From Lama guanicoe (lineage: Eukaryota), in assembly GCA_013239625.1 (NCBI GenBank), contig MU055744.1, positions 124,001 through 188,000 on the forward strand: DNA of 64,000 bases, written 5' to 3'. Under the pieces are notes generated by a model. It searched no databases. It had not been told where the DNA came from and saw nothing but the letters and a program-made list of their open reading frames with translations. The translations under genes were made by a program, and so were the position numbers. The number at the start of each line of letters is the position of its first letter. Within the stretch, counting starts at the first letter, position 1. Shown here one piece after another: positions 34,820 to 62,565 of the stretch.

Positions 34820-37212
34820 AGAAGGGACATCCAGAATGTAACAGGGAGCACTTACAAATCAAATATGTGATTCAGATTAAAGAAAAAAGTCAGTGAAAGG
34901 GTTGTAAGTTGAGGAAATCTCCCAAAAGTGGAGCAGAAATGAAAGGAGTTAACAATAGAAAAGATAAGGATAGTCATAGCCCCAGGAGGAATTCTAAGAT
35001 CTTAGTTACAGGAATTCCAGAAAGTCAAAACAAACAATGAAGGGAGGAAGTTACTGAGGGAATAGCACCAGGAAGCTGAAAGGTGTTAGTATCCAAATTT
35101 CTGAGGTCTAGATCGTGGAGCACGTGGGGGGGGGGGGGGGACGGGACACCAAGGCCATCACCCTGAGGTCACAGAGAAAGGAGAGCAAACAGAAGAAACT
35201 AAAACCTCCAGAGAGGGGATGGGGAGGAGAAAGAGGGAGGGAGGGGGAGGGGAGGGAGGGACAGACAGAGACAGCGGGAGGAGGGAGAGAGGAGCAAGAG
35301 CACACAGCAGAGCGCATGTAAAGGACAAACAGCACGAGACAGGGGACCTCTCAACAGGAGCATGGAAACTAGAAGACAACGGGACACGCCACTGAAATTC
35401 TAAGAGAAAAGTGTTCATGTTCCAACCTGTAACTTGTTGCTCAAACTGCCAATCAATCAGACTGAGGATGGGGTAAAGATATTTTCAAAAAAATCTCCTC
35501 CCATGCACTCGTGGTCTGGAAGCCCACCCTGACTTGGCTGGGGAGAACAGGCTGCAGAGCGTGAGGCCGGGGAAACACAGGGCTGGCCAGTCACCTGAGG
35601 GGTGGAGAGGAGATTTACACCTCTGACCGACAGTCAGGGGCCCAATCAACGGGGGTAAATAAAAAGGAAGCAGCAAACATGCAGCTAACCCCCCAAATTA
35701 GAGACACTAGTCAACACAAGGAAAACGTGATAAGGGAAAGGAAATAGAGTCGAATCAGAGTGTATTATGTGGATTTGCTGTGAACAATACTCATCAAAAT
35801 CCTGACAAAGGATGTAGTCAACAACTTTTCAGCTATCAGTGACAAGTAGCATGTTGGTCTGTTGATCCAACATGACGTCGTTAGCTTCCACAGGGTGTTC
35901 ACCCCTCCCTGTCCACTCCCTCTGTCCTGGTCAGTCCAGTTTACTGCCCATGCTCCCCCGAGCAAAGCCTCGACCCCATGTTCACAACCCCATCCTCCAC
36001 ACTGTGGCCAAAGGGCTCTTCCCAAAGGCAAACCTTAGTGGGTTACTCCTGCTCTCATCCCAAAAGGATTTCTTTTCAGAAAGTGTCTGTCTGGAGGTGT
36101 CAGACCTGTGACACCTTCCACATTGGAGATGGATCCCAGATATCACTTCCTGTGACACCTTCTTCAGTGGAGATGGAGCCTGGGTATGATATCTGAAATG
36201 AAAACTCTGTTTGGGTTTAATATCATATTGGAGATGGCAGAAACTAGGATGAGTAATCCTGAGGACAGAACCAAAGAAATTATCCAATTGAAAAACAGAG
36301 AGTAAAGACTGAAAAACAGAACTGTGAGAAGTAACAAGCAGAATTACATACGTACATTAGTTGGAGTTTCAGAAGAAGAAAATGAAGAGAATGGAGCAGC
36401 AAAATAAAAATGTTTGAATGCTAGTAAAAATTTTCCCAATTTGATGAAAAACATTCATATGTAGATCCAAGAAGCTCAGCAAACTCAAGCAGAATAAATA
36501 CGTACACTTGGGTGCATAATCGGAAACCCCAACCCCTCAAAAAAGGAGAAAACCTTGAAAGCAGCCAGAGAACATGTCACATCACGTGCAGGGGACAATG
36601 ATACAGGTGGATATGAAAGATGACTGATTTATCATTGGAAGCAATGGAAGTCAGAAGACAATGGGATGACATCTACAAAATATATCCTTCAAAAATAAGT
36701 GTGGCAGTTCCTCAAAAAGTTAAAAGTAGAATTTACATATGATACAACAGTTCCGCTCCTGGGAATATATCTAAATAATCGAAATTAAGGCCTTGAAGAG
36801 GTATATGTACATCCATGTTCACAGCAACACTATCCACAATAGCTAAACGTCAAAGCAATCCAAGTGTTCATCAGTGGATGAATGAGTAAGCNNNNNNNNN
36901 NNNNNNNNNNNNNNNNNNNNNNNNNNNNNNNNNNNNNNNNNNNNNNNNNNNNNNNNNNNNNNNNNNNNNNNNNNNNNNNNNNNNNNNNNNNNNNNNNNNN
37001 NNNNNNNNNNNNNNNNNNNNNNNNNNNNNNNNTGAGGTTTCTAGAATTAAGTCATAGAGACAGAATGGAGAATGATGGGTACCAAGGGCTAGGGGGAGGG
37101 GGGAATGAGTAGGCAGTGTTTCATGGGGACAGAGTTTCAGTTTTACAAGATGAAGAGTTCTGGAGATGGATGATGGTGATAGTTTCACAATACTACAAAT
37201 GTATTTAATGCC
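34820..37212 (+). mobile_element. Cluster of L1M fragments (ORF1 remnants and an L1MB-like 3' end spanning an N gap)
   Basis: ORF1-like text at about 34830-35100 and 36250-36690 (ttttcccaatttgatgaaaaacatt...gatccaagaagctcagcaaac). 3'-end text ggcagttcctcaaaaagttaaa...gagttctggagatggatgatggtgatag at about 36700-37210. Confidence 0.7.
36892..37032. other. Assembly gap (141 N)
   Basis: Run of N. Confidence 1.
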
Positions 37213-37529
37213 TCTTTCCAGGCAGGCTCCTCCTTCACATTCTTTGGGGTCCATTGCAGTGACCACAGGCATTTTTGGGACCCCACCAAGACGAGCGTGA
37301 GTTGGGATGCATTTACTCGGGGCTTATCGGATATTTTTACTCTGTTCACAGTCTTGCTGGCCTGTCCTGGGGCAGATATGTCTTCTATGGCTACCAACTA
37401 CCCACCTCACAACACCCGGAACTGGAAGTATGCAGGAGAGAAGGAGAAACAAGGTTTGTCCTATGAACCAGAAGGGAGACTGCAGAACTGTCAGCAGAGG
37501 ACTCAGTTCTCCAGACACCGGGATAGAAT

Positions 37530-38100
37530 GTGTTATTAACTACGGAAACCTCAGCCAAAGTTGGAGTCTGAACAGGCCCGCAGGGGCGTGCATGTCAATA
37601 AAGCCATCTCTGCCTACATTCCCCACAGGAAGGTGCCTCTACTTACTGTCCAGGAGGAGGAAGGAAACGTCCCTCTGCCCCAGGATGGCCCAGCTAATCA
37701 CAGACCTCAGCGGCCCAACCAATGGGAAGCCTCCATACTCTGGGACCCCAAACTCTCCAGTGGGCTCTTTGGTTGTCACAGCCCTTCCCAACTCCCCCTT
37801 TTCCCTATAATAAAGCAAGTTCTCACTCCTTGTTCTCTGGATTTGCCTTTTTTTTTTTTTCTGGGAGAATGCCTGGTTTATTTGGTTACATTCTTGGTTA
37901 TGGCCTTTCATGCCTCTTTTTTTTAAACATTTTTTATTGATTTATAATCATTTTACAATGTTGTGTCAAATTCCAGTGTTCAGTGGATTTGCCTCTTATC
38001 TACCATCATTCTCATATCCTGAATTGCAATTCCTTTGCTGTTCCCAAATAAATTTGCTTTTGTTGATAAAATAACCGGTATTATATTATTAAAGTTGGCA
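37530..38100 (+). mobile_element. ERV1 LTR copy A (MER34-like), carrying an L1 insertion
   Basis: TG...CA ends, CCAAT, TATA-like cctataataaag and AATAAA near 38047. Clearly homologous to the LTR at 39126-39600 (shared gaaacctcagc, gggaagcctccatact, cccaaataaa...tattaaagt). Confidence 0.8.
37849..37983 (-). mobile_element. Very short 5'-truncated L1 with 3'-transduced sequence, flanked by TSDs
   Basis: TSD tggatttgcct at 37838-37848 and 37984-37994. Minus strand: L1 terminus ...GAATTTGACACAACATTGTAAAATGATTATAAATCAATAAAAAATGTTT-A8, then 56 nt non-L1 containing AATAAA, then A12-13. Confidence 0.85.
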
Positions 38101-38149
38101 GTAACACACTAACGTTTGAGGCTTGCTAAGTGATGCCGGCACCTCTATG

Positions 38150-38860
38150 CCAATGAAGGAATCTGCAGGTACCATCACTCGTGTGGGGGCTTTATGTGTG
38201 TACACCCCCGTCACACTTCCATATGTGGAAGGTCTGTGAGCGGCCCTTATGTTTGGGCAACCTGTTGCCTTGCTGGCCGGAGAGCACAGGGCAGTGTGGC
38301 CCGCCATATTCACCGTCCCGTTCTCCCCACATCACTGAACAGAAGCCTCGTATGGATCCGTCCCATTAACCCTTTACAACTGCCTTGAGTGAGAACTTCT
38401 AGGAGGCATAAGCAGTTCTGGCTTTGCCTCCGTAGGGACAGCTTTCCCCCCACGGGTGGGAGTGAGCACCAGCGAACCAGGGATCAGGAGCCTGGGAGAG
38501 CCAGCTGACCCTGGAGCCCACGCAGTTTCAGCTGGGCGACCATCACTCCACACTCTGGCCACGGTGGTTTTGGGTAACCACGCAGCATGTGATCACCTGC
38601 TTGCTGAGAGGTGTCTGCAATCGTAAACTCGTCTTGCTGCAAGTGGTTAAATGCCTCTGGGGAGGCAGAGACTCAGTTACATACACTAAAGGGCAAGCAC
38701 ACTGGCCACAGCGAACACCACCCGACACCCTACTGCCTGTTCAACTGGACACCTTCATCTCTGGCTCCTGGCTTAGAACCACCTTGCAAACTGGGTTTAT
38801 TATGTTGTATTAATTCTGGTCTGGTATTTGTCAAGTTTGTCAAACCTTTATAAGAATGAC
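38150..38860 (+). pseudogene. Degenerate retroviral env (C-terminal SU and TM)
   Basis: 38543-38608 reads SLHTLATVVLGNHAACDHLLAE (immunosuppressive-domain-like). After frameshifts it continues GV..AIVNSSCCKWLNASGEAETQLHTLK (CX6CC region). Fusion-peptide-like ELLGGISSSGFASVG near 38392. Confidence 0.75.
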
Positions 38861-39125
38861 AGGCCTAATAAGATGATGCTAGCTCAGCACCTTGAGGTAA
38901 TTTCCAGCGCTTACAGCCCTGACTAACCACGGACTTTTAACACGGGACACCTGAGCGCGCTCCCTACACCTTTGCTTGTTACTCAACTGCAGGTGCGTGA
39001 GGCCTCTCACTTGTGTACTTTCCAAGTGCGCAGGGGAAGGTCCTTCCTGGCGCCGAGGGAGAAACCACTGTCATGCAGAGATCCTGACTCCTAATCAGCG
39101 ATGCTCTGATCAAAAGGGGAAAAAG

Positions 39126-39600
39126 TGGAACGAATGACAGAAACCTCAGCTAAAGTATGAGTCAGGACACTCCGAACACCAGGTGGGTAAAGGGCACTTG
39201 CGCATCACCAGGCACATCGATTACCCCGAACAGGAAGCGACCGCCGGTCTCCGCCTGTCTCCCACGGGAGGGCGCCTCTACCTACCATCCAGGAGGCAGA
39301 AGGAAGCTTCCCTCTTCTTCCCCCAGGACGGCCCAGCCCATCAGAGGTCTCAGCGGCCCTAACAGTGGGAAGCCTCCATACTTCGGACCCCCACCCCAAC
39401 TCCTCCAATGGATTCTGGTTATCACAACCCTTCCCCACTCCCCCTTTGCCCTATAAAAGCAAGTTCCTCCTCCATGTTCCCCGGTTTTGACTGCGACTCC
39501 CCCATAGTTCATAGATCCTGAACTGGAATTTCTCCGCTATACCCAAATAAACTTGCTTTTGCTGCTAAGATAACAGGCTATTACATTATTAAAGTCAACA
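39126..39600 (+). mobile_element. ERV1 3' LTR copy B (MER34-like) preceded by a polypurine tract
   Basis: PPT aaaaggggaaaaa at 39112-39124, TATA cctataaaag, AATAAA near 39545, end aaagtcaaca. Confidence 0.8.
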
Positions 39601-40162
39601 CATTTTCAGAATTCCTGTGTTGTGGAGCGTAAACCTGTAGGAATGCCACAGTGAGCACATCTAGGTGAAACCTCAAGTATTACCCAAATCAACGTCAGCA
39701 TTAACGATCAGATACACATCGGATCAAACACCTTGGAGAAACGTCTGAATTGTCTTTCTGTTGTTTCTATAATGCAATTCTGCAAAGTCACGATGTGGCA
39801 TTCAATGAGAACACAGCCAAAAATGTCAGCAAAAGCACTAGAGATGCATCCATTGATTCATGGAAATATCCTCCTCCGAATTTTGAGATGTGGCATGTCA
39901 GTTTTCAAAAATTCATAATTTATTGACTTATTTTCTCATTAAATAAATTATAAAATAACTAAAATATTAGTTATTTTAAATAACATTAACATTATATTAT
40001 GTATACATCATAGTACATTATTTTATCATTATGTATATATTTTTTAAAATGTTATACAAGAATATTATTTTCTGTAAGCAATTTTGTTTTTATAATTTTA
40101 TTTCCTTTGTCCTCCACATATTAACATGTGCTTCAGGCCCCACCAAACCTGCATCTACCCCT
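39601..40162 (+). mobile_element. hAT-Tip100 (Zaphod-like) DNA transposon right end
   Basis: LEKRLNCLSVVSI at about 39733 resembles the hAT C-terminal dimerisation motif RLNxLxxLxI. AT-rich tail ends gcttcaggccccaccaaacctgcatctacccctg, like the recalled Zaphod terminus. Confidence 0.6.

Positions 40163-46102: not shown

Positions 46103-54433
<8,331 letters not shown>

Positions 54434-59607: not shown

Positions 59608-62565
<2,958 letters not shown>

Follow-up and report, generated by a model that had tools for sequence, protein, structure and literature searches.

A 135-nt insert within a long terminal repeat (LTR) is probably a partnered, "parentless" L1 3' transduction that came from a source L1 likely never to have been fixed. 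The insert is real and well formed, its source has been located, and the parent is absent. A target-site duplication (TSD) encloses the whole unit, paralogous LTRs carry the empty site, the 5' piece is L1, and the remainder, the tag, matches a unique source over 59 of 59 nt, with a native signal and cleavage spacing and with no L1 beside it. We use "the window" for the whole stretch of DNA that was analysed, 64,000 nt corresponding to G000:C6096:124001-188000 of a 2.05-Gb mammalian assembly, whose SINE and L1 ends suggest a camelid, and positions given without a contig are window positions.

Anatomy of the insert and its host LTR

Read on the minus strand, the unit runs from one target copy (37997-37984) through an L1 3' end, a tract of eight A's, the tag and a run of 13 A's to the second target copy. 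Direct reading of the sequence places the exact 11-mer TGGATTTGCCT at 37838-37848 and 37984-37994, with 135 nt (37849-37983) between the two. The duplication extends to 14 bp with one mismatch (37838-37851 against 37984-37997). The sequence-only reading had described the duplication, the minus-strand AT/AAGA site and about 135 nt of enclosed DNA in these same terms. The 5' copy (37984-37997, minus strand) preserves the original target, AAGAGGCAAATCCA, with its nick at AT/AAGA, and is present as a single copy in the paralogous LTRs; the 3' copy (37838-37851, minus strand) is exact over 11 bp, and the G at +3 is read as A. The insert's site scores 5.36 on an endonuclease matrix, which is the median of 53 control sites. 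The 11-mer repeat is weak evidence on its own, since 82 of the 43,231 window 11-mers recur 100-200 nt downstream, and the TSD is supported by the empty sites of the paralogues.

The L1 piece is a 5'-truncated 3' end of 59 nt (37925-37983, minus strand) with its own AATAAA at 37938-37933 and no microhomology at its 5' junction. It is followed by the internal A8 tract (37917-37924, minus strand), whose final two A's also match the source locus, and by the 59-nt tag (37860-37918, minus strand), in which a second AATAAA lies at 37882-37877. The terminal poly(A), 13 nt long (37848-37860, minus strand), begins 16 nt past that second signal, and the source templates just one of its A's. In plus-strand letters the same parts are T13 at 37848-37860, a tag of 56 nt at 37861-37916 and T8 at 37917-37924; the coordinates proposed earlier for a 56-nt non-L1 tag and its signal were correct. 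There is no inversion in the insert, which rules out twin priming. An arrival of the tag first, with the L1 added later at the same nick, is ruled out because the 5' duplication continues as target and not as tag. Three Rfam matches in 37000-39000 are weak and far below gathering scores.

The host was rightly recognized as an LTR: it is the 5' LTR (37600-38100, plus strand) of an old two-LTR element whose second LTR lies at about 39260-39600, with about 1.1 kb between them, all boundaries being approximate. Its paralogues are 70-85% identical, and two of 24 paralogue loci align across the internal part (38101-39601) at 64-66%. The insert stands antisense to the LTR, approximately 25-30 nt after a TATA-like motif. 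Among the 24 paralogous LTR loci retrieved, from 39 non-self matches, 19 have contiguous flanks and one copy of the site, with an overlap of exactly 11 bp in 15 of these; the other five gave no clear reading. The empty site anticipated for the insert was therefore found in paralogues, whereas no joint to an orthologous empty site occurs in four DNA runs. A joint at 37848-38013 that might have passed for an empty orthologue was rejected, as its letters are those of a paralogue (L045). The assembly holds no near-identical second copy of the LTR flank (best other match 81%).

Contigs of all four DNA runs, which bear four organism labels and of which three are marked as possible assembly sources, contain the junction of LTR, poly(A) and tag. 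These contigs, 741-754 nt in length, span the LTR through the poly(A) and 30 nt into the tag with zero substitutions (one has an extra T), and stop where the sequence becomes common to the source. Contig cover of the L1-to-LTR junction (37983/37984) is zero in all four runs, and the zero depth at 37990-37999 carries no information.

Pfam matches were obtained for 9 of the 101 open reading frames (ORFs) of the window. They are to TRAF zinc-finger, RING and MATH domains (10-22 kb), MBF1 (43 kb), MAM (47-49 kb) and Ocnus (56 kb). These domains, together with known synteny, suggest that the insert lies between genes that we take to be TRAF2 and EDF1. At 50833-51114 a unit of about 141 nt is repeated head to tail without any difference, the result of either a recent duplication or an assembly artefact. 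A 985-aa open frame without a Pfam match, in GC-rich DNA at 59611-62565 (minus strand), is possibly a large single exon.

The tag and its source locus

The identification of the 5' piece as an L1 3' end was borne out: an exact 50-mer from it occurs 3,792 times in the assembly (control pattern, 0), and an RVT_1 (reverse-transcriptase) ORF lies upstream of this 3' end in three of three long copies tested. The tag is found at two places only, the insert and G000:C3348:12,293,532-12,293,590 (plus strand), and the match extends over 59 of 59 nt (37918-37860), three more than the 56 of the sequence-only reading. Its absence from 97 L1 loci, 24 LTR loci and the other retrieved loci, together with the two occurrences in the assembly, rules out that it is part of an L1 or LTR family.

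The expectation that the tag would identify its parent L1 held in one half: the source locus exists and is unique, but the assembly has no L1 directly upstream of the tag there. Upstream, the nearest L1-family 3' end on the same strand is 89 kb away and that on the opposite strand 11 kb; downstream, the nearest lies at 9 kb. Thus the match directly downstream of a longer L1 that had been predicted did not materialize. Sibling insertions, also foreseen, are missing, as a query of 1,151 nt around the source returns only the two known places. That query, together with the 81% best other match to the LTR flank, rules out siblings and a parent elsewhere in the assembly or on a second haplotype. With no L1 at the source and no siblings, the tag is likely the former address of the parent and not the parent element itself.

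At the source, an AATAAA stands 36 nt into the flank, at a distance of 16 nt from the cleavage point that follows it, and UGUA motifs lie upstream. No A run follows the cleavage point in the source sequence, indicating that the terminal poly(A) was acquired at the RNA level. An endonuclease-type site, AG/AAGA, falls exactly at the tag start (score 3.6, top 2.1% of background), and a second, TC/AAGA, falls 3 nt upstream of it (score 6.58, top 0.3% of background and in the upper quartile of real sites). Where AAGA is present, 14.6% of background positions have a strong site within 3 nt by chance, so this site is weak support. Insertion by L1 machinery and the native spacing of AATAAA and cleavage point are as the sequence-only reading proposed; read-through by a parent we infer rather than observe.

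Of the words sampled from the L1-less source stretch, each of the 15 listed DNA runs (five organism labels) contains 0.99. These runs are the best holders of source words, and so a selected set, and 14 of them are marked as possible assembly sources; they consequently carry little information on a rare L1 allele at the source.

A Pfam screen detected no coding exon within 430 kb around the source, although the screen is crude and small or non-coding exons would escape it; no gene from which a processed retrocopy might have come was detected. One of 138 ORFs had a match, to a piece of L1 ORF1 (138 of 151 long ORFs were screened), and none of 93 exon candidates did (93 of 115 splice-scored candidates were screened). 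Eight ORFs at the source gave one sub-cutoff match (E 0.011), and a codon-score screen around the source picked out only GC-rich repeats. With no coding exon detected in the 430 kb, an L1 promoter is the simpler origin of the tag RNA. The same contig contains near-perfect tandem duplications at C3348:12,226,032-12,237,640 (L149-L150; 4.7 kb and 1.5 kb at 99.7-99.9%, around a CpG-rich minisatellite) and at C3348:12,095,872-12,100,173 (L136; 2.15 kb at 99.9%), which are either recent or errors of assembly.

These observations point to the following history. An L1 probably once stood at G000:C3348:12,293,53x, and its transcript would have extended beyond the element's own poly(A) signal as far as the AATAAA in the flank. 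The read-through RNA was likely reverse-transcribed into the LTR at AT/AAGA, copying having ended after 59 nt of L1. The parent would then have been lost, either never fixed or sorted out of the lineage, and the tiny daughter persisted. We infer the former presence of the parent, its loss, and the origin of the L1 piece and tag in one RNA.

Control L1 copies and competing explanations

The controls are 97 of the first 100 listed L1 copies (25 search loci and 72 retrieved), taken in contig order and not at random. Their median length is 355 nt, and a length of 70 nt or less occurs in one of the 97, which makes the window copy unusually short, though otherwise typical. Convincing TSDs were found for 53 copies (54 target sites less one miscall). 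The 40 clean junctions have 5' microhomology of 0, 1, 2 and 3 nt in 18, 10, 8 and 4 copies, respectively, and 4 nt or more in none; another 12 junctions have extra bases and one gave no resolution. In six of the 53 controls (L065, L085, L095, L097, L121 and L125), one of the first five letters of the target has changed from non-A to A in the 3' TSD, for which primer trimming, a shifted nick and homogenization of the tail are possible readings.

The control L097 (L097:3051-3145; G000:C1064 near 1,561,430) is a second parentless 3' transduction, of about 78 nt and classic architecture, the tag source of which (L133, C2616:5,310,186) is 92% identical and has no L1 upstream. Control L104 (L104:2690-3245; G000:C1064 near 3,987,700) consists of TSD, L1, A tract, a 14-nt target copy, A9, about 135 nt with an AATAAA, poly(A) and TSD. 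It is best read as two insertions that re-used one endonuclease site, and its inner piece has a best match of 83% (L131), so that the source is uncertain. In the tail of L099 (G000:C1064 near 2,829,450), within a 10-bp TSD, two A tracts are separated by about 14 letters other than A, possibly a very short transduction. The copies L063 and L064 (G000:C895, 407-410 kb), neither of them among the 53, are 1.9 kb apart with identical flanks, likely a local duplication, and hence are not independent controls.

Several features of the insert argue for transduction. A single 14-bp TSD at an endonuclease-type site encloses, in order, the L1 3' end and A8, a non-L1 tag in the same orientation, AATAAA, 16 nt and an untemplated terminal poly(A); the signal falls 10-30 nt before that tail, and the tag has a unique match elsewhere. 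The same architecture, with an L1-less source, recurs in this genome in L097. The change of G to A at the tail, which the TC/AAGA site needs and which the insert's own 3' TSD displays, has its counterpart in the six controls just cited; every reading requires that a non-A letter beside the tail has become A in the 3' TSD. A source L1 directly upstream of the tag, typical of partnered transductions, is absent from this assembly, and that absence defines the "parentless" subtype. Counting against transduction are the lack of a parent at the source and of any sibling, the L1-less source stretch in 15 of 15 selected DNA runs, and an identity, unnoticed in the sequence-only reading, that a parentless transduction does not explain.

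The tag begins with AAGAGGCA, the same 8 nt with which the 14-bp target duplication begins; one outer TSD encloses the unit, but an internal copy of the target start is present as well. Among the 54 control target sites, 2 of 1,431 pairs have at least six letters in common after the A run (mean expectation, 0.0012), which puts the coincidence of tag and target at about 1 in 700 control pairs. The identity leaves a two-RNA origin allowed. In a rough weighing rather than a computation, it is about neutral to moderately favourable to two RNAs, and base rates favour transduction.

The better placed of the two-RNA explanations, though still unlikely, supposes two insertions at different times. A solo L1 of 59 nt would have inserted first with a 14-bp TSD, and the 3' end of a second RNA, a polyadenylated RNA from C3348 (a non-coding transcript or an orphan transduction), would then have entered its tail at TT/AAAA, duplicating the 14 bp A8-GAGGCA. 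The 5' end of this second insert would have been joined through 8 nt of AAGAGGCA microhomology, the remains of the L1's own 3' TSD. Such a history accounts for the 8-nt identity and for the G that is preserved behind the internal A8; a consensus TT/AAAA does exist in the L1 tail, the implied 14-bp TSD is typical in length among the controls, and the tandem architecture (TSD-L1-An-partial TSD-X-An-TSD) has a precedent in L104, one of the 53 controls. In five RNA-type runs (X16-X20), 5-12% of the source words are present, which is no evidence for or against a transcript. However, the 8 nt would be unusual here too, given that 5' microhomology in the L1 family did not exceed 3 nt (0 of 40 at 4 nt or more). 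A8-GAGGCA would fit a 14-bp TSD, but 8 nt of it have their template at the source locus and the G is missing from the 3' copy; two events are required, with loss of the same G. The crude 430-kb screen found no gene near the source, and no L1-only, tagless allele was seen in the four DNA runs, all of which have the tag junction and none of which covers the L1-side junction.

Tandem and nested non-LTR insertions at one target were reportedly described by El Sawy and Deininger in 2005, the usual order being the later insertion 5'. The insert has in common with them, as does L104, a partial target copy flanked on both sides by segments that end in poly(A). Unlike them, the middle copy here is 8 nt long and source-templated, and the later-insertion-5' order, the re-use of the same 5' site that L104 fits, is excluded by the window sequence. 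A literature search on combined terms returned no paper on tandem insertions.

A still less probable explanation is a single event with two RNAs, under which the insert never had a parent and is a reverse-order chimera of L1 and host RNA. ORF2p would have begun on the poly(A) of a separate RNA and made a copy of 59 nt, at which point the cDNA end spelled the same eight letters as the nicked target strand; the cDNA would then have paired again with the target and been primed anew on the poly(A) of an L1 RNA. This would explain together why there is one TSD, why tag and target start with the same 8 nt and why no parent is found, and template switching is, in the available text of 10.1101/2025.02.02.635956, one proposed route to L1 chimeras. 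The U6/L1-type chimeras described there likewise join L1 and non-L1 sequence within one TSD, but they carry the non-L1 RNA 5' of the L1 3' end, whereas here it is 3'. The transcript at the source is presumed, and we have one case, for which odds of the order estimated above under the ordinary model are set against many transductions genome-wide.

An assembly chimera, or a tag that is simply L1 or LTR family sequence, is scarcely credible: the uncovered L1-to-LTR junction would permit a chimera, but contigs cross from the LTR into the tag in four of four runs without substitutions, the TSD and untemplated poly(A) make sense mechanistically, and the L1 and LTR copies examined lack the tag.

Known transductions and what the insert means

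Most likely the insert is one more short parentless transduction of the kind known from dogs, in which, as far as the accessible parts of the two reports go, 17 of 18 (PMC7980453) and 24 of 27 (PMC13141329) transductions were parentless. In both (PMC7980453; PMC13141329), an L1 3' end, poly(A), unique tag and second poly(A) lie within one TSD, and the tag locus is L1-less, as here. The dog cases are dimorphic insertions, whereas the tag junction of the present insert is in four of four runs with four organism labels; it looks as though the daughter is widespread while the parent is gone. The 8-nt identity of tag and target seen here is unmentioned for the dog cases in the portions available (PMC7980453; PMC13141329). 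Short tags are common elsewhere: in the available text of a long-read tumour study, tags of less than 100 bp make up 71% (PMC13009371), and its short partnered transductions resemble ours, a 59-nt tag between two A tracts with an AATAAA 10-30 nt from the end. Those events are somatic and human with sequenced sources, whereas the present one is germline and its source element unseen (PMC13009371). Our literature search found no paper on transduction in camelids; PMC8605555 mentions transduction once, in general terms only.

Reverse-order chimeras, if they occur, would mimic 3' transductions, so that some "parentless" tags now counted as signs of hidden active L1s would be false leads. If the two-RNA explanations were true, parentless tags would not all be evidence of unseen source L1s, and the idea can be checked across the genome by setting the start of each tag against that of its target site. 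If the insert is the parentless transduction that we favour, it marks a probable former site of an active L1 (C3348:12,293,53x), and it may serve as a presence/absence marker.
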